From positions 100,973-164,972 of the forward strand of contig JACPOK010000038.1 in NCBI GenBank assembly GCA_016191525.1: 64,000 nucleotides of DNA, written 5' to 3'. The notes under the pieces were generated by a model. The model was given only the letters and a program-made list of their open reading frames with translations. It did not search any database and was not told the origin of the DNA. The first letter of the stretch is position 1. Every line of letters begins with the position of its first letter. Source of the stretch: Burkholderiales bacterium (GTDB lineage: Bacteria; Pseudomonadota; Gammaproteobacteria; Burkholderiales; Burkholderiaceae_C). This document shows positions 9,359-58,196 of the stretch, piece by piece. Position numbers and translations under genes: made by a program.

Positions 9359-10257
9359 ACCTCGCCTTGCTGGCAGCAGCCGCCACCGGAGTGCAGGTGG
9401 GCGCAGCCATCGTGGCGTCGCGGTTCGCCGTGGCGGAAGTGCCGCCGCTGACGCTGGCGATGCTGCGTTATGCCATCGGGTTTGCCTGCCTCCTGCCCTT
9501 CGTTTGGGAGGGAAAAAGGCCTGTAGGGCGCACCCAGCATGCGTGGGCGGCTACAAAATCGATAGCACCCGACCTTTTCGCCATGGCCGCGCTGGGCATC
9601 GGCCAGTTCGGCATCCTGATCGCGTTGCTCAATTTCGGGCTGCAGCGCGTGGGTTCCGCCCAGGCCGCGCTGATCTTCAGCCTCTTTCCCCTGCTCACGC
9701 TGATGCTGTCGGCCGCCCTCGGCCGCGAGCGGGTAACGGCGGCGCTGGTGTTTGGCGTGCTGCTTTCCGTGGCGGGCATCGCCGTGTCGCTGTCGGCGCG
9801 GCTGCAGGGCACGGGCGACTGGTGGGGCGAAGCGGCCGTCGCCGCTGCCGCCTGCACCGGCGCGGTTTGCAGCGTGCTGTACCGCCCCTACCTGCAGCGC
9901 TACCCCACCCTTGCGGTCTCGGCCTTCGCGATGCTGGCCTCGGTGCTGTTCCTGGCCGTGCTGGCGCTTGGGGAGGCCTGGCCCACGCGCGTCAGTTCTT
10001 TCAGCGCGCAGGCCTGGGCTGCGACAGGTTTCATCGGCGTGTCCAGCGGCATCGGCTACTACTGGTGGCTCTATGCGCTCAAGCACGAATCGCCGACGCG
10101 GGTCACGGTGTTCCTCTCGCTCAACCCCGTGACGGCGGCGCTGCTCGGCTGGGCCTTCCTGGGCGAAGCGCTGCGCCTGGAAGTGCTGGCCGCGCTGGTG
10201 CTGATTGCCGGGGGCTTGTGGTTAGCCACACGGCCCGCGCCACCCTCGCGCCGATAA
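9355..10257 (+). CDS. DMT/EamA family transporter
   Basis: Two EamA repeats with about 10 hydrophobic segments. There is no in-frame ATG near the start; a CTG at 9355 overlaps the upstream TGA. Confidence 0.82.
   Translation: MNLALLAAAATGVQVGAAIVASRFAVAEVPPLTLAMLRYAIGFACLLPFVWEGKRPVGRTQHAWAATKSIAPDLFAMAALGIGQFGILIALLNFGLQRVGSAQAALIFSLFPLLTLMLSAALGRERVTAALVFGVLLSVAGIAVSLSARLQGTGDWWGEAAVAAAACTGAVCSVLYRPYLQRYPTLAVSAFAMLASVLFLAVLALGEAWPTRVSSFSAQAWAATGFIGVSSGIGYYWWLYALKHESPTRVTVFLSLNPVTAALLGWAFLGEALRLEVLAALVLIAGGLWLATRPAPPSRR
9512..9567 (+). repeat. Dispersed ~56-bp repeat, copy A (in frame inside the DMT gene)
   Basis: GAAAAAGGCCTGTAGGGCGCACCCAGCATGCGTGGGCGGCTACAAAATCGATAGCA. Hand count 36/56 ungapped identity to copy E and 32/47 to the core of copy D. 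Confidence 0.8.
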
Positions 10258-24756: not shown

Positions 24757-27274
<2,518 letters not shown>

Positions 27275-32828: not shown

Positions 32829-34004
32829 TTATTCAGGCACGAAGCCGTAGATGCCGCCGCCGTGCGTTACGACCACCAGGGTGTTGCCCGCCAGGACAGG
32901 GGCGGCGGCCACGGCCGTGCCGTCGGTCGTGAGGCGCGTGAGCGGCGTTCCATCGGTGCGGGACAGCAGGTGCACCAGGCCCGCGCTGTCACCCACCACC
33001 ACGGAGCGGCCCACCACCAGCGGGCCGGTCAGGCCGCGGTACAGCAGGCGGTCGCTGGTCCAGGCGCGCTCACCGGCGTCGCGCTTCCAGGCGACGACCT
33101 TGCCGTCGCTCTCGGTGCCGTAAACCATCTGCTCATCGCCATGCACGCCTTCGGCGCCATTGGCCGGCTTGGACCACAGCACGGTGCCGCGCGCCGCGTC
33201 CACACAGCCCACGCTGGCCTGGAAGGCGCGTGCGCAAACCGTATTGCCGACCCGGCTGGTGCGGCCCACCAGGTCCACCAGACGCTCGATATCGTTGGTG
33301 CCGCGGGGCGTTGCGATGGCAGCTTCCCAGCGGACGCTGCCATTGATCGGGTTCAGGCCCACCATGCGCCCACCCAGGCCGGTGACCAGGGTGTCGCCCA
33401 CCGCCAGCATCACGCCGGACTGGCGCAGCACCAGCGGCTCGCCGGGGCGCTGCTGGGTCCACAGCTTGCGGCCGCTCTGGCCGTCGAAAGCGCTGACCGA
33501 GCGGTCCGCCGCCAGCACAAAGACACGGCCTCCCGCCACGAAAGGCGCGGTGTAGCCCTGGGCCACCAGCTTCTGGCGCCAGGCCTGCTTGCCGCCGCTG
33601 AAGGCCACGACTTCGTTGCCGCGCGTGATGACCGCGGTGAGGTTGCCATCGCTGCCAACGCCGGCCGCGATCGGCCCGCCCGCACTGGCGCGCCACAACT
33701 CACGCCCGGTCGCGCCGTCGATCGCAACCACCGAGCCATCGCTGCTGGCCACGGCCACCGTGTTGCCACTGACGTTCACGGCCAGGGGAAAGCCGACTTC
33801 GCCGACGCGTGCCGTCCATGCCGGGCGCACGGCGATGAGGGCCGCGTTGGGTGCCAGTTCGGCCGGCTTGGGCTTTTCCACGGAACTGCTGCCGCCCAGC
33901 CAGGACGGCATCATGGAACAGCCGGAAATCGCGAGTGCTACAAAAACAGGAGCTGCGTAAGCAATACCGGTGCGGGTTGCAGCCGTTTTCTTCTCGTAAA
34001 TCAT
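32829..34004 (-). CDS. bamB: Outer membrane protein assembly lipoprotein BamB
   Basis: Lipobox LAISGC, PQQ-like propeller repeats, RGTNDIERLVD; yfgM-bamB-der synteny. Confidence 0.92.
   Translation of the reverse strand: MIYEKKTAATRTGIAYAAPVFVALAISGCSMMPSWLGGSSSVEKPKPAELAPNAALIAVRPAWTARVGEVGFPLAVNVSGNTVAVASSDGSVVAIDGATGRELWRASAGGPIAAGVGSDGNLTAVITRGNEVVAFSGGKQAWRQKLVAQGYTAPFVAGGRVFVLAADRSVSAFDGQSGRKLWTQQRPGEPLVLRQSGVMLAVGDTLVTGLGGRMVGLNPINGSVRWEAAIATPRGTNDIERLVDLVGRTSRVGNTVCARAFQASVGCVDAARGTVLWSKPANGAEGVHGDEQMVYGTESDGKVVAWKRDAGERAWTSDRLLYRGLTGPLVVGRSVVVGDSAGLVHLLSRTDGTPLTRLTTDGTAVAAAPVLAGNTLVVVTHGGGIYGFVPE
33936..33990 (-). repeat. ~56-bp repeat, copy B (encodes most of the BamB signal peptide)
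   Basis: Reverse complement GAAAACGGCTGCAACCCGCACCGGTATTGCTTACGCAGCTCCTGTTTTTGTAGCA; 40/55 ungapped identity to copy D. Confidence 0.8.
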
Positions 34005-51131: not shown

Positions 51132-52388
51132 TCAGATGTCAAAGAGAAGGCGCGACGGATCTTCCAGCGCTTCCTTCATCGCCACCAGGCCCAGCACGGC
51201 TTCGCGGCCGTCGATGATGCGGTGGTCGTAGCTCATGGCCAGGTAGTTCATCGGCCGCACCACCACCTGCCCGTTCTCCACGACGGCGCGGTCCTTGGTG
51301 GCGTGCACGCCCAGGATGGCCGATTGCGGCGGATTGATGATGGGGGTGGACAGCATCGAGCCGAACACGCCGCCGTTGGAAATGGAAAAGGTGCCGCCGG
51401 TCATCTCTTCGATGCCCAGCTTTCCGTCGCGCGCCTTGGCGCCGTACTCGGCGATCTTCTTCTCGATGTCGGCGAAGCTCATCTGGTCGGCATTGCGCAG
51501 GATGGGCACCACCAGGCCGCGCGGGGAGCCCACGGCGATGCCGATGTCGAAGTAGCCGTGGTAGACGATGTCGTTGCCGTCGACCGATGCGTTGATCACC
51601 GGGTATTTCTTCAGCGCATGAACCGCCGCCTTCACGAAGAAGCTCATGAAGCCGATCTTCACGCCGTGCTCCTTCTCGAACTTCTCCTGGAAGCGCTTGC
51701 GCATTTCCATCACCGGAGCCATGTTCACTTCGTTGAACGTGGTGAGGATGGCGTTGCTCGACTGCGACTGCAGCAGGCGCTCGGCCACGCGGGCCCGCAG
51801 TCGGCTCATGGGCACGCGCTGTTCGGGCCGCTGCCCCAGGTCCGGCGCCGCCACGGACGCGTTCACCTGGGGGAGGAAAGCGGCTGCAGGGCGCGCCGGC
51901 TGTGCTTGGGCAGCTACAGATTTAGGAGCAGACGCAGCGCCGAGCACGTCCGCCTTGAGCACGCGGCCGTCCTTGCCGGTGCCCGGCACGGAGCCGGCGG
52001 CCAGGTTGTTGTCGGCCATCAGCTTGGCGGCTGCCGGCATCGCGATGCCGGCCTTGCTGCCCACCGAAGCGGCGGCTGCCGGCGCCGCCGCAGCGGCGGG
52101 CACGGCAGCTGCTGCGGCCGGGGCCGGGGCCACCGCCACGCTCTTGCCGTCGGTATCGATCTTCGCGATCAGCTGCTCGGCGGCCACCGTGCTGCCGTCG
52201 GCCTGCACGATTTCGGCCAACACGCCGGCTGCGGGCGCGGGCACTTCCAGCACCACCTTGTCGGTCTCGATCTCGATCAGGATCTCATCCATCGCCACGG
52301 CGTCGCCGGGCTTCTTTTTCCACTGCAGCAGGGTTGCCTCGGCAACCGATTCGGACAGCTGCGGGACTTTGACTTCTACGATAGCCAT
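51132..52388 (-). CDS. sucB: 2-oxoglutarate dehydrogenase E2 (dihydrolipoyl succinyltransferase)
   Basis: Lipoyl domain ETDKV, E3-binding domain [17 protein letters not shown]. Confidence 0.96.
51876..51930 (+). repeat. ~56-bp repeat, copy D (antisense, in frame in the SucB linker)
   Basis: GAAAGCGGCTGCAGGGCGCGCCGGCTGTGCTTGGGCAGCTACAGATTTAGGAGCA; read on the minus strand as [18 protein letters not shown]. Confidence 0.82.
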
Positions 52389-52405: not shown

Positions 52406-55276
52406 TTATTTGGTTAAGACGAAGCCCTTGAGCTTGCCGAAGGCGCCGTCGACCAGGGCCTTCTGCTGCTCCTGGTGCAGGTGCGAGTAGCCCACCGCGG
52501 GCGAGGCGGAGGCGGCGCGGCCGGAGTAACCCAGCTTCTGGCCTTCCAGCATGTTCTCGTGGATGTAGTGCTGCACGAAGAACCAGGCGCCCTGGTTCTG
52601 CGGCTCGTCCTGCGTCCAGACGATGTCGGTGGCGTTCGGGTACTTCTTGAGCTCGGCCGCGAAGGCCTTGTGCGGGAACGGATAGAGCTGCTCCACGCGC
52701 AGGATGACCGTGTCGTCAGCGCCCTTTTCCTCGCGCTTCTTGGCCAGGTCGTAATACACCTTGCCCGAGCACAGCACGATGCGCTTGACCTTCTCGGCCT
52801 TCAGTTCCTTGTTCTCGGGAATGATGGTCTGGAAGCTGCCCTTGGTGAACTCCACCAGCGGCGAGGCGGCGTCCTTGTTCCGAAGCAGCGACTTGGGCGT
52901 CATGATGATCAGTGGCTTGCGCAGCGGGCGGATCATCTGGCGGCGCAGCACATGGAAGATCTGGCTGGCCGTGGTCGGCTGCACCACCTGGATGTTGGTG
53001 TCGGCCGACAGCTGCATGAAGCGCTCCAGCCGCGCCGAGCTGTGCTCCGGGCCCTGGCCTTCATAGCCGTGCGGCAGCATCAGCGTGATGCCGTTCACGC
53101 GGCCCCACTTCACTTCACCCGAGGCGATGAACTGGTCGATCACCACCTGTGCGCCGTTGGCGAAATCGCCGAACTGCGCTTCCCAGATCACCAGGGTATT
53201 GGGGTCGTTGGAGGCATAGCCGTACTCGAAACCCAGCACCGCCTCTTCGGACAGGATGGAGTCGATCACGACGTAGGGGGCCTGGTTGTCGGCCACGTTG
53301 CACAGCGGCGTGTAGGTGCCGATGTCCCACTTTTCGCGGTTCTGGTCGTGCAGCACAGAGTGCCGGTGGGTGAAGGTGCCCCGCCCGCAATCCTCGCCCG
53401 ACAGGCGCACCGGGTAGCCGCTGGCCACCAGCGATGCGAAGGCCATGTGCTCGCCCATGCCCCAGTCGACATTGGTCTCGCCGCGGCCCATGGCGGCGCG
53501 GTCGTCCAGCACTTTCTTGACCAGGGGATGCGCAGTGAAGTCGGCCGGCAAAGTGGTGATCTTCTCGGCCAGGCGCTTCCATTCCGCGGTGGGAATGGCC
53601 GTGTCGGCCGCGTCGGTCCACTTCTTGCCCAGGTAAGGGCTCCAGTCGACCGCGTACTTGCTCTTGAAGTTGGTCAGCACCGGGTCGAACGTGTTCTTGC
53701 CGGCGTCCAGCGCTGCGCGCAGCGCCTTGACCATGTCGTCGCCCAGCGTCTCGCCCATGCCCTGCGCCGTCAGCTTGTCGGCGTAGAGGCGCCTCGTGCC
53801 GGGGTGCTGGCCGATCTTCTTGTACATCAGCGGCTGGGTCAGGGAAGGCGTGTCCTGCTCGTTGTGGCCGAGCTTGCGGAAGCAGACGATGTCCACCACC
53901 ACGTCCTTGGCGAACTCCATGCGGTAGTCCAGCGCCAGGCGGGTGGCCAGCACCACGGCTTCGGGATCGTCGCCATTCACGTGCAGTACCGGCGCCTCGA
54001 TCATCTTGACGACGTCGGTGCAGTACAGCGTGGAGCGGCTGTCACGCGGGTCCGAGGTGGTGAAGCCGATCTGGTTGTTGATGACGATGTGCACCGTGCC
54101 GCCGGTGAAGTAGCCGCGGGTTTCGGCCAGCGCCAGCGTTTCCATCACCACGCCCTGCCCTGCGAAGGCGGCGTCGCCGTGCACCTGCACTGGCAGCACC
54201 TGCTTGCCCTGCGGGTCGGCGCGGCGGTCCATCCGGGCCCGAACGGACCCTTCGACCACAGGGTTGACGATTTCCAGGTGGGACGGGTTGAAGGCCAGCG
54301 TCAGGTGGACCGGGCCGCCGGAGGTGGTCACGTCCGAGCTGAAGCCCTGGTGGTACTTGACGTCACCGGAAGGCAGGTCTTCCTTGGCGGTGTGGTCGAA
54401 CTCGGCGAACAGGTCGGCCGGCACCTTGCCCAGCGAATTGACCAGCACATTCAGCCGGCCGCGATGCGCCATGCCGATCACGATTTCCTGCACGCCCTTG
54501 GCGCCGGCTTCCTGGATCAGCTCATCAAGGGAGGCGATGAAGCTCTCGCCGCCTTCCAGAGAAAAGCGCTTCTGGCCAACGTACTTGGTGTGCAGGAAGC
54601 GCTCCAGGCCTTCGGCAGCCGTCAGGCGGTCGAGGATGTGCCTTTTTTTCTCGGCCGAGAAGTTGGGCTTGCTGCGGATCGATTCGAGCTTTTGCTGCCA
54701 CCAGCGCTTCTTGCCCTGGTCGCTGATGTACATGTACTCGGCGCCGATGGTGCCGCAGTAGGTTTCGCGCAGCGCGTTGATCAGCTCGCGCAGCGACATC
54801 GACTCCTTGCCGAAGAAGGTGTTGCTGGTGTTGAACACGATTTCCTGGTCGGCATCCGAGAAGCCGTAGAAGGAAGCCTCGAGTTCGGGGATCTTTTCGC
54901 GCTCGGTGCGCTTCAGGGGGTCCAGGTCGGCCCAGCGGGCGCCGACGTTGCGGTAGGCGGCGATGAGCTGCTGCACGGCCGTGCGCTTGCGGCCCATTTC
55001 GGAGTCGGCGCCGGTGGCCTGCACCACGCGTGTGCCACCCTGCTTGGCGCGCTCGGCGAAGGCATTGACCACGGGCAGGTGCGGCACGTCCCTGGCATTG
55101 CTGCCGTCGACGGCGGGCACGTTCTGCAGGGCGTCGAAATAGTCGCGCCAGGTGTCGGGCACGCTGCCGGGGTTGGCGAGGTAGTTTTCGTACATCTCCT
55201 CGACATAGGGCGCGTTGCCGCCGAAGAGATAGGAATTGCCTTGATAGGCCGTGTAGACGGAGCTGGGCTCACTCAT
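52406..55276 (-). CDS. sucA: 2-oxoglutarate dehydrogenase E1
   Basis: [37 protein letters not shown]. Confidence 0.97.
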
Positions 55277-55311
55277 GCTGTTCGCTGACTTTCCGTCTCC
55301 CTGCAGGAGAC

Positions 55312-55378
55312 ATTGGCTGGTTCAAGAAACCTCCCGCGACACGGCTGGACCGGATGGCGGATGCGACTGTGGCTGGAA
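55312..55378 (-). ncRNA. Probable sucA RNA motif (cis-regulatory leader)
   Basis: Minus strand ...GTCGCATCCGCCATCCGGTCCAGCCGTGTCGCGGGAGGTTTCTTGAACCAGC lies just 5' of sucA. It matches my recollection of the Burkholderiales sucA motif core (CCG..CGGTCAAGCCGTGTCGCGGAAGGTT..AACC). Not checked with Infernal. Confidence 0.7.
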
Positions 55379-55424: not shown

Positions 55425-56270
55425 TCAGCGCGGGATGGCTGGCGCCTGGCGCGCACCGCTGTTGTATTCGCGGCTTTCCTCATTCGATTTGCGCTGCCAC
55501 GCTTCGCGCATCTTCGTCACGGCTTCACGATCGGACATGGTGCTGCCCGTGGGCGGCGCCACATCTGCCGGGGGAGTAAATTCGATGCCGAACTGCCGCT
55601 TCATCGAGAGGTTGCAGGCCAGGTGGTCGCCGGCGGACGGCTGCGACCGCTTGCGTATGCTTTCGTCGCGCAGGTAGCTCATCACCGAATCGGCCTGCTC
55701 ATGGGTGTGCGGCAGCCCCAACACGTGGCCCATCTCGTGCACCACCACCGAGGGCAGGTCGGTCATGCGCGGGTTCAGCTCGATGCCGGTTTGCAGGCTG
55801 CCGGTGCCTGCGATCCCGCCGCCGTTGGCGCTTGCCTTCAGGTAATCCAGCCGCCAGCGGATGCTGACGCGCTCGGGCCTGCCGTCGGCCTGATACGGCG
55901 CCCGCCCGCCATAGCTCAGGTCCACCTTGCAGCCGTCCATCCAGGCTTGCATGGCCCGGCGGATCGCCGCCTCGACGGTGGCGGCAGGATGCTCGGCCGG
56001 CTCGTTGCCGGGGTCGTAATACAGCGTGAAGGCCGCGCGCACTTCCGGCTTGTACAGGCTGGCGGGCCGGGACGCCGCAGCCGCCGGTGCTGCCAGCCTG
56101 GGCAATTTGACCAGCGCTTCCCGGTCGTTGCCGCCCGATTCATTGCAAGGCGCATCCTTGTACGCCGTGCGCCCACCAGCGCCGGTGCAGCGGTAGACGG
56201 TGGGTTGCGCCTGGGCGGCCGCAGCACAGGCCAGCAAGCCCGCCAGTGCGCAGGCCGCTCTCATTTTCAT
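55425..56270 (-). CDS. Secreted DUF4124-like + matrixin/metzincin zinc metalloprotease
   Basis: Signal peptide, YRCTGAGGRTAYKDAPC, HEMGHVLGLPH plus Met-turn SVMSY. Start 56270 or 56291. Confidence 0.78.
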   Translation of the reverse strand: MKMRAACALAGLLACAAAAQAQPTVYRCTGAGGRTAYKDAPCNESGGNDREALVKLPRLAAPAAAASRPASLYKPEVRAAFTLYYDPGNEPAEHPAATVEAAIRRAMQAWMDGCKVDLSYGGRAPYQADGRPERVSIRWRLDYLKASANGGGIAGTGSLQTGIELNPRMTDLPSVVVHEMGHVLGLPHTHEQADSVMSYLRDESIRKRSQPSAGDHLACNLSMKRQFGIEFTPPADVAPPTGSTMSDREAVTKMREAWQRKSNEESREYNSGARQAPAIPR

Positions 56271-56311
56271 AGCCGCATAAGCATGTCCCATGCGGTCTGC
56301 AGCCTACTTTC
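56256..56311 (-). repeat. ~56-bp repeat, copy F (spans the prpE stop and the protease start)
   Basis: Reverse complement GAAAGTAGGCTGCAGACCGCATGGGACATGCTTATGCGGCTATGAAAATGAGAGCG; 26/35 identity to copy B over the core. Confidence 0.72.
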
Positions 56312-58196
56312 CCAATGAATCCGTGATCGCCCGCAGCGCGGCGGGGTCTTCGATGGTGGTCAGGTCGCCCGCGTCCCGGCCTTCGCACACCGCCTGGATT
56401 GCGCGCCGCAACAGCTTGCCGCTGCGCGTCTTGGGCAGCAGGCCGACGAAGTGCACGCGTGAGGGCCGGGCCACCGCGCCGAGCTGCTCGTCCACCACCT
56501 TCATGATCTCGCCTTCGAGCTTCATGCGGGCCGCCTCATCGCCCAGCGCGGCCGCATCGCGCGCGACCACGAAGGCCATCGCCACCTGGCCCTTGAGCGC
56601 GTCGGCCACGCCGACCACCGCCACCTCGGCCACGTTGCGGTGGCTGGAGATGCTCTCTTCGATCTCGCGCGTGCCCAGCCGGTGGCCGGCCACGTTGATC
56701 ACGTCGTCGGTGCGGCCCAGGATGTAGTAGTAGCCGTCCTGTTCGCGGATGCCCCAGTCGAAGGTGCTGTAGACCATCCTGCCGGGAATGCTCTGCCAGT
56801 AGGTCTTGACGAAGCGCGCGTCGTCGCCCCAGATGGTCTGCATGAAGCCCGGCGGCGTGGGTCCCTCGATGACGACGACGCCCTTCTCGCCCGGCTGCGT
56901 CAACTCCTCTCCCGTGCCCTCATGGACGATCTTCACCTTGAACCCGTACATGGGCACGCCGGGGCTGCCGAACTTGCTGGCCTTCTTCTCCACGCCGTTG
57001 GCCACGGTCAGGATGGGCCAGCCGCTCTCGGTCTGCCAGTAGTTGTCGATGATGGGCACGCCCAGCGCTTCGCTGATCCAGCGGCCGGTGGGTTCATCGA
57101 GCGGCTCGCCCGCCAGGTACAGCGCCTTCAGGCTGGACAGGTCGTACTTCTTCAGGAACGCCGGGTCCTGCTTCCTGAGCACGCGCACCGCCGTGGGCGC
57201 GCTGAACATCGCCTTGACCTTGTACTTCTCCACCAGGCTCCACCAGATGCCCGCGTCGGGCCGGACCGGCAGCCCCTCGTACATGATGGTGGCCATGCCC
57301 GCGATCAGCGGGCCGTAGACGATGTAGCTGTGGCCCACCACCCAGCCGATGTCGCTGGTGGAGAAATAGGTTTCTCCCGCCTCGCACTCGAAGATGTGCT
57401 TCATGCTGGCCGCCAGCGCCACCGCGTAGCCGCCGACGTCGCGCTGCACGCCCTTGGGCCGCCCGGTGGTGCCGCTGGTGTAGATGGTGTAGCTGATGTC
57501 GGTGGCGTCCAGCCACTCGCAGGGCACGCTGGTCCCGGCATGCTTATGCGACAGGGCCTCCCACGAATGGTCGCGGCCTTCCTGCATGGTGAAGGCCGCG
57601 AGGCCCCGGTCCACCATGATCACGGCTTGCGGCTTGTGGCTGGACAGGCGGATCGCCTCGTCCAGCAGCGGCTTGTATTCCACCACTTTCCCGCCGCGCG
57701 AGCCGGCATCGGCGCTGACGATGAGCCGGGGCGACGCGTCCTCGATGCGGGAGGCCAGCGCCATGGAAGCAAAACCGCCGAACACCACGGAGTGCACGGC
57801 GCCGATGCGGGCGCAGGCCAGCATCATGAAAGCGGCCTCGGCGATCATCGGCATGTAGATCAACACCCGGTCGCCCTTGTTCACGCCCAGGCCGAGCAGC
57901 ATGGCGGCGGCACGCTGCACCTGCTCGTGAAGCTCACGGAAGCTGTAGGTCTTTTCAGTGCCGGTTTCCGTGGAGACGTAGATCAGCGCCGGCTGCTCCG
58001 CGCGGTCCTTGAGGTGACGGTCGACCGCGTTGTGGCACAGGTTGGTGGTGCCGCCCACAAACCAGCGGGTGAATGGGGGGTTGGTGTTGTCGCAGATCGT
58101 TTGCGGCGGCGCCTGCCAGGCTATCAGTTGCGCCTGCTCGGCCCAGAAAGCCTCGGGCTCGGCCAGCGAACGCTGGTAGAAGTCGTCGTAATTCAT
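56304..58196 (-). CDS. prpE: Propionate--CoA ligase
   Basis: YTSGTTGRPKG, SDIGWVVGHSY, DNYWQTE, GRTDDVINVAGHR, KTRSGK. Confidence 0.9.
   Translation of the reverse strand: MNYDDFYQRSLAEPEAFWAEQAQLIAWQAPPQTICDNTNPPFTRWFVGGTTNLCHNAVDRHLKDRAEQPALIYVSTETGTEKTYSFRELHEQVQRAAAMLLGLGVNKGDRVLIYMPMIAEAAFMMLACARIGAVHSVVFGGFASMALASRIEDASPRLIVSADAGSRGGKVVEYKPLLDEAIRLSSHKPQAVIMVDRGLAAFTMQEGRDHSWEALSHKHAGTSVPCEWLDATDISYTIYTSGTTGRPKGVQRDVGGYAVALAASMKHIFECEAGETYFSTSDIGWVVGHSYIVYGPLIAGMATIMYEGLPVRPDAGIWWSLVEKYKVKAMFSAPTAVRVLRKQDPAFLKKYDLSSLKALYLAGEPLDEPTGRWISEALGVPIIDNYWQTESGWPILTVANGVEKKASKFGSPGVPMYGFKVKIVHEGTGEELTQPGEKGVVVIEGPTPPGFMQTIWGDDARFVKTYWQSIPGRMVYSTFDWGIREQDGYYYILGRTDDVINVAGHRLGTREIEESISSHRNVAEVAVVGVADALKGQVAMAFVVARDAAALGDEAARMKLEGEIMKVVDEQLGAVARPSRVHFVGLLPKTRSGKLLRRAIQAVCEGRDAGDLTTIEDPAALRAITDSLGK

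Follow-up and report, generated by a model that had tools for sequence, protein, structure and literature searches.

The mycobacterial interspersed repetitive units (MIRUs; Supply et al. 1997, summarised in PMC3184786) are 40-100 bp long and located between genes within an operon. Each contains a short open frame and overlaps, at its two ends, the stop codon of the upstream gene and the start codon of the downstream gene; they occur as tandem VNTRs, and short direct repeats at filled sites suggest transposition (PMC3184786). Here we describe a 66-nt dispersed repeat family, one copy of which (copy F) lies across the junction between a prpE-like gene and the gene for a secreted protease. As far as that summary describes MIRUs, the layout is shared: copy F and 49 copies show the same co-directional overlap of a stop and a start. 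To judge from the same source, the 66-nt family differs from MIRUs in being single-copy at each site, in lacking target-site duplications (TSDs), in its unrelated sequence and in being common inside genes. Among the described systems, copy F, which has a layout typical of its family, is closest in kind to MIRU-type junction elements.

Repeats that are read as protein offer a second comparison. Rickettsia palindromic elements (RPEs) are 105-146 bp long, reside in ordinary, even essential, genes and add residues to the host protein. They are dispersed repeats that are stop-free in some frames and are read in frame inside genes (Ogata et al. 2000, from PMC3184786). Likewise, 112 copies of the 66-nt family are read in frame inside genes. 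Unlike RPEs as that account presents them, the copies that we compared with orthologues add no residues (4/4), the host is free-living and high in GC, and the sequence is unrelated. The REP2 repeat of Neisseria carries a promoter and lies upstream of a co-regulated gene set (Morelle et al. 2003, summarised in PMC3184786). Set against that summary, the 66-nt family differs: it shows neither evidence of a promoter nor a consistent start position. Uptake sequences (the USS and DUS of Pasteurellaceae and Neisseriaceae) are lineage-specific motifs that occur in both orientations and in favoured frames inside genes. They arise in place without a change of length, the intergenic ones lie after gene ends, and their 9-12-nt cores number thousands of copies. 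The 66-nt family resembles them in occupying coding sequence in place without length change; it differs in its 66-nt length and its ~320 copies.

BRE (Hot et al. 2011, PMC3110155) is ~90 bp long, has 69% GC and is often tandem; its hosts are Polaromonas, Delftia, Rhodoferax and Acidovorax. It lies mostly between genes, while some copies overlap ORF ends and some are wholly in coding sequence (PMC3110155). The 66-nt family belongs to the same bacterial order and family. We rejected identity with BRE: blastn found just a 14-nt match to the 66-nt consensus. BRE-like sequences form a second repeat family in the genome studied, at ~15 separate loci (e.g., C37:225999-226066 and C36:96698-96742), the latter just upstream of the window, as we call the whole 64,000-nt stretch of DNA analysed here. 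REPs are extragenic palindromes of 20-40 nt, often in inverted pairs, that flank a RAYT gene; REPs and REPINs, with their RAYTs, are short hairpin-capable repeats that lack TSDs, lie mostly just downstream of genes and avoid promoters (PMC3116915, PMC3337134). The 66-nt family shares with them the lack of TSDs, a bias toward gene 3' ends and an avoidance of divergent spacers. It differs in that at least 35% of its copies are intragenic, its hairpins have no support from covariation and the Y1_Tnp gene of the genome has no copy nearby. A literature search found no description of the family, which is not proof that none exists.

We label the genome studied G000, and coordinates are window positions unless a contig is given. 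The prpE-like gene (56304-58196, minus strand, as are all features of this junction) encodes an acyl-CoA synthetase of 630 aa with AMP-binding, AMP-binding_C and ACAS_N domains. Downstream of it lies an ORF of 288 aa (55425-56291) that domain matches assign to a secreted M10-type metalloprotease: the Peptidase_M10 match lies around HEMGHVLGLPH, and the DUF4124 match (residues 19-74) follows the signal peptide. The next gene is sucA (52406-55276), with the sucA RNA motif RF01070 just upstream of it (55283..55366; Rfam match, 71.5 bits). This motif is the native downstream limit of a variable prpE-sucA slot. A sigma-70-like site at 55428-55400 overlaps the protease stop.

Copy F occupies 56319-56254 and matches profile positions 2-67 in an nhmmer search, reaching 8 nt deeper into prpE than the span 56256-56311 that an earlier, sequence-only reading of this DNA had assigned to it. 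On the minus strand the junction runs GAT TCA TTG GGA AAG TAG gctgcagaccgc ATG GGA CAT GCT TAT GCG GCT ATG AAA ATG AGA GCG GCC, of which 56311..56256 holds AAG TAG through AGA GCG. The 5' arm of the copy contains the final four sense codons of prpE, TCA TTG GGA AAG (56307-56318), together with its TAG (56304-56306), which stands at element positions 15-17 in place of the consensus AGG. The 12-nt spacer GCTGCAGACCGC from the TAG to the first ATG (56292..56303) is all element sequence. All three candidate starts of the protease also lie in copy F: M1 (ATG 56289-56291), M8 (56268-56270; preferred) and M10 (56262-56264), at element positions 30-32, 51-53 and 57-59, respectively. As the sequence-only reading had claimed, the copy provides the stop of prpE as well as the candidate starts of the protease; this can be read directly in the minus-strand sequence. 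A single reading frame is common to prpE, the spacer and the protease ORF through copy F. It is also, as had been noted, the frame of the copies in the BamB and DMT genes: the '+2' frame, the commonest in read-through copies (45/112). Read-through of the TAG would yield a PrpE-protease fusion, the same-frame ORFs being separated by the TAG and four codons (56262-56306). PrpE ends in ...ITDSLGK* in G000 and in ...I[KR][DE]L[VM]xx* in the orthologues of 19 genus genomes, and the divergence of its tail from these begins exactly at the element start.

Neither blastn nor a pattern search with copy F found another copy in the window, and a profile search was needed. A first profile, made from copy F and four other listed copies with which it can be aligned, gave hundreds of genome matches. 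To avoid circularity, we rebuilt the profile without the window copies, using 295 copies, all outside the window, over 68 positions. With this profile, nhmmer found 319 copies at E<1e-3 in the 5.0-Mb genome. Copy F scored 34.8 bits (E 4.9e-8; rank 268 of 319 copies), a significant score with a profile lacking all window copies, and is confirmed as a genuine, degenerate member of a 66-nt dispersed family. The consensus of the rebuilt profile is TTTCAGAGGGAAAAAGGCCTGCAGAGCGCGCCAGCTGTGCGTGGGCAGCTATCAAATTTATAGCA. Information content falls sharply before position 1 and after positions 65-66, giving a unit of 66 nt, or 22 codons, with ~51% GC against 68% in the genome.

Four further copies lie in the window. 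Copy A (9503..9569, plus strand) is read through in the +2 frame inside a DMT/EamA-type gene. Copy B (33935..34000, minus strand) is read in the frame of copy F and forms the n- and h-region of the signal peptide of the lipoprotein BamB: the ATG immediately precedes the copy, the lipobox follows it by 6 codons, and the leader is only ~9 residues longer than in the closest relatives. Copy E (26543..26597, minus strand) is a same-length patch of rare codons inside hisZ that encodes a native-type peptide, and copy D (51875..51931, plus strand) lies antisense in the sucB linker, where it aligns colinearly with the orthologous Ala/Pro linker.

Neither end of the consensus (TTTCAGAGG... and ...ATAGCA) is an inverted repeat of the other: the terminal inverted repeats that mark MITEs are absent. 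Across 168 full copies we found no TSD: flank identity was not above background at k = 3-9. Copies are single per locus among the nhmmer matches, with none adjacent in the window and no tandem arrays. We also rejected a structured-RNA reading: RNAalifold found just 6 invariant pairs in the family alignment; under a two-hairpin model 83.3% of cells pair against 83.4% in shuffles, with no excess covariation; and Rfam holds no family for the element, the sucA motif being the sole Rfam match in the window.

The reading we prefer, with a probability of about 0.7, is that copy F is a diverged family member overlying the junction, a passenger and not the agent that brought the protease gene. The accessory protease would already have been lodged in the variable prpE-sucA slot when element sequence came to occupy the tight prpE/protease junction. 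The unconstrained PrpE tail would then have been rewritten, with DSLGK in place of D-L-V/M-A-x. A single change in the 5' arm, AGG to TAG, would give the prpE stop, and changes in the 3' arm, ATC to ATG and ATTTAT to AATGAG, would give the start codons. Such an arrangement would be tolerated because protein tails and the n-regions of signal peptides accept almost any sequence. The family as a whole is characteristically found on gene ends and on sequence-tolerant coding stretches. Annotation of the protease start and of the PrpE C-terminus should allow for the element.

Which ATG starts the protease is uncertain because no SD-like sequence is properly spaced from any of the three. The homologues in two genus genomes (G022 and G015) carry unrelated signal peptides of 20-21 aa before a conserved (T/G)V(Y/F)RC, and MKMRAACALAGLLACAAAAQA, read from M8 (ATG 56270), matches that leader length. 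A possible RNA hairpin of 9 bp (CCGCAUGGG/CUUAUGCGG, 56273..56295; MFE -29.4 kcal/mol, z -1.5, not significant alone) would bury the first ATG and leave AUGAAAAUG unpaired just 3'. Between prpE and the protease we found no promoter- or terminator-like site. From the leader-length match, the buried first ATG and the lack of such sites, we infer that, most probably, prpE and the protease share a transcript and protease translation begins at ATG 56270. This would give a Sec signal peptide of 21 residues whose basic n-region alone is element-derived. Coupled re-initiation at ATG 56291 is a possible alternative. In translation, the signal-peptide region (56208..56291) extends to AQA/QP, and copy F ends at 56254; the hydrophobic core and the cleavage site are outside the copy, and the overlap is with the n-region only. 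The proposal that the element builds the N-termini of exported proteins thus stands for BamB, whose signal peptide is element-encoded, and shrinks for the protease to an n-region, MKMRA(A), if M8 is the start.

Placement across the genome was scored with our own codon-usage gene caller (4,570 genes, 88% coding). By these calls, 150 of the 319 copies are intragenic, 70 overlie a gene edge and 99 are intergenic. A stricter test independent of the caller, in which both sides must share the same best coding frame with no stop, gave 112 read-through copies, distributed over the frames +2 (45), -1 (41), -2 (13), +0 (9) and +1 (4). The intragenic share is therefore 35-47%, and the family does not have the extragenic location of REP/REPIN elements. 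A stop codon lies inside or within 10 nt of 136/319 copies, against 23 +/- 5 at random, and the strongest association of the family is with stop codons, or gene 3' ends in general. Divergent spacers make up 27% of intergenic bases, yet they hold only 9 of the 168 non-intragenic copies, a depletion.

Perhaps the element is instead an adaptive, portable cassette, providing a stop, a spacer and a start or an export leader in the manner of MIRU or REP2, and copy F is required for translation and secretion of the protease? We consider this unlikely, although it fares best among the alternatives. In its favour, an upstream stop and a candidate downstream start are both contained in, or adjoin, 49 copies; these copies, however, lie in the two orientations about equally (22 vs 27). 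Signal-peptide-like N-termini, called with our own crude hydropathy predictor, are overlapped by at least 24 nt in 17/319 copies, against 5.6 +/- 2.4 at random (maximum 12 in 200 trials). Clear cases are BamB, with its element-encoded leader, and several lipoprotein and Sec leaders. The enrichment at exported-protein starts that the sequence-only reading anticipated is thus real but modest, ~3-fold with a crude predictor. It is equally explained by leaders and tails that tolerate any sequence, and the leaders of the homologous proteases are of equal length but unrelated. The 5' arm offers AGAGG and, 5 nt later, ATG or GTG in 45/246 copies (48 if TTG is counted), and two genes begin at precisely this point. 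Nevertheless, copies upstream of genes have a start codon at positions 15-17 no more often (12/44) than copies in other contexts, and in copy F these positions are the prpE stop, with no SD before the ATGs. A built-in start at positions 15-17 after AGAGG was accordingly rejected as a general feature, its frequency being similar in all contexts.

The protease is found in few relatives. Among 24 genus genomes, G022 has it at 62% identity and G015 at 50%, in a different locus, while G023 retains a fragment; a contig scan based on the protease gave only distant metalloprotease motifs. With 2-3/24 genomes carrying the gene, the claim that copy F sits at the junction of an accessory gene holds good. 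Throughout the genus prpE and sucA remain next to each other; their spacing is ~180-330 nt in 12 genus genomes, ~1.0 kb with the protease in G000 and G022, and 0.7-1.9 kb with other content in 6 genus genomes. In G002 the slot is occupied by a convergent TPR and class I methyltransferase gene (L038:307-1620, minus strand). Judged by these genome comparisons, gene content has varied repeatedly at this slot. G005 and G023 have 1.5-kb gaps, the same size as that of G002, and in some genus-mates the slot holds short ORFs without an assigned identity. Another GC-rich palindrome (CCCTCTCCCCCTCGGGGGAGAGGG-like) lies ~10-60 nt after the prpE stop in G020, G041, G012 and G008 (L047, L054, L056 and L040); it seems to belong to a separate dispersed family of hairpin repeats in the genus and occupies the place that copy F takes in G000.

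The sequence-only reading had gone further and suggested that the element may mark or mediate gene insertion; in one form of this model it would be a recombination site bordering the cassettes through which accessory genes integrate. Copy F does coincide exactly with the 5' border of the protease gene, which is accessory in the genus, and the prpE-sucA slot is variable across the genus. However, G022 holds the same gene in the same slot without the element; hence, the gene can occupy the slot without it. The family is absent from all 24 genus-mates, and copy F is the sole copy in any prpE-sucA region: the junctions of the protease-less genus genomes, once compared, have none, nor do the other slot occupants or the 3' border of the protease next to the sucA RNA motif. 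In the alignment of G000 and G022, identity drops from 0.70-0.85 in prpE to 0.40-0.48 over ~120 nt of element and leader and recovers in the mature protease, with a net gain of only ~12 nt in G000. Since the junction at copy F is only ~12 nt longer than that of G022, the element did not add 66 nt. The state of the junction before the element is here deduced from G022, whose signal peptide is unalignable, and the closest relatives stand at ~85% PrpE identity; G000 and G022 could have acquired the protease independently.

Genome-wide evidence points the same way. Genes that flank copies are not codon-atypical: their median score per codon (0.626) exceeds that of the genome (0.599), and 9% of them belong to the lowest 15%. 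By this codon-usage proxy, the enrichment at accessory-gene borders that the sequence-only reading expected has the opposite sign, with flanking genes slightly more native. Moreover, 112-150 copies are inside core genes such as sucB, hisZ, thiL and rlmD, and no terminal inverted repeat, TSD or associated recombinase was found. We conclude that a role for the element in gene insertion is already largely refuted, and we regard it as very improbable. That a repeat borders an accessory gene is no evidence that it moved the gene. Least credible of all is that copy F is an AT-richer junction that aligns with the family merely by chance: it is among the most diverged copies (62% identity to the consensus, the 9th percentile of the family) and blastn with it finds no second copy in the window, but its E-value was obtained against 10 Mb (both strands) with a profile that never included it, the match is full length and the invariant blocks GCTGCAG, CGC, TGC, GCTAT and AGC are kept.

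How copy F came to overlie the junction may be judged from copies inside genes, which can be set against orthologues in ~20 genus genomes. None of the four compared adds length (4/4): the change is 0 in RlmD, 0 in HisZ, 0 in ThiL (against two same-length orthologues) and -4 aa in a variable linker in SucB. The rlmD genes of G000 and G022 are equal in length and share 86% DNA identity, which falls to 48%, the minimum for the gene, exactly over the 22 element codons. The rlmD gene of G022 (L155), which lacks the element, already holds GCTACGGAGTTTGTAGC, a perfect match to the 3' hairpin motif of the element; its alignment partner is the G000 copy at C39:145934. The thiL copy, the best intragenic one at 63.7 bits, fills a segment of 24 codons, equally long in G002 and G023, in which other orthologues show a similar native peptide pattern, A.AM.L.AA.... 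In hisZ, the copy has A/T-ending rare codons wherever these match the consensus, and orthologue DNA scores <=5 bits. In the genes with the 112 read-through copies, GC3 is 0.51 within the element and 0.89 elsewhere; the element is kept in the genome at the cost of rare codons. The native segments of hisZ and thiL partly resemble the element-encoded peptide.

Because the intragenic copies add no length, simple insertion of the RPE or MITE type fails to explain them. These comparisons favour a length-preserving replacement of resident sequence over simple insertion, and sites may be chosen by pre-existing similarity to the element. Outside the genus, the family occurs in 14/39 other genera sampled from the same bacterial family, in forms that range from diverged to nearly identical. 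One genome from another genus (G073, 2.7 Mb) has at least 122 copies of up to 73 bits (e.g., C40:13950-14023), which score almost as high as G000's own, whereas the 24 genus-mates of G000 have none. Other genomes that carry the family include G048, G058, G066, G068, G076 and G079. The presence of the family in scattered genera and in G000, and not in its genus-mates, suggests a cause that moves horizontally.

A more tentative proposal, to which we would give somewhat less than even odds, covers the whole family: it would not be a transposon and would be written as length-preserving patches at partly resembling sites. The writing would occur by templated replacement or by an in-place, sequence-specific drive or selection, through a horizontally moving factor. 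Such a factor would explain why the family is found in scattered genera and in the species of G000 and in none of 24 sister species. If this proposal is right, copy F would be the trace of one such rewriting across a stop/start junction, and the sites at which selection lets rewriting persist would be gene tails, linkers and signal peptides. Should replacement hold in closer relatives, it would represent a mode of spreading or maintenance outside the MITE, REP/RAYT and RPE classes, and element-positive and element-negative species within one genus would make a tractable system for finding the responsible factor.

Two known kinds of machinery were considered and rejected. A link to retroelement-templated rewriting of the DGR or retron kind was discarded since G000, which is 99.97% complete, has no match to the reverse transcriptase family PF00078. 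A RAYT link fell because the sole Y1 transposase gene (PF01797, C8:211298-211993) is not flanked by family copies, with none within 5 kb. This Y1_Tnp gene, which is IS200/RAYT-like, encodes 231 aa on the plus strand and lies upstream of a large gltB-like ORF.
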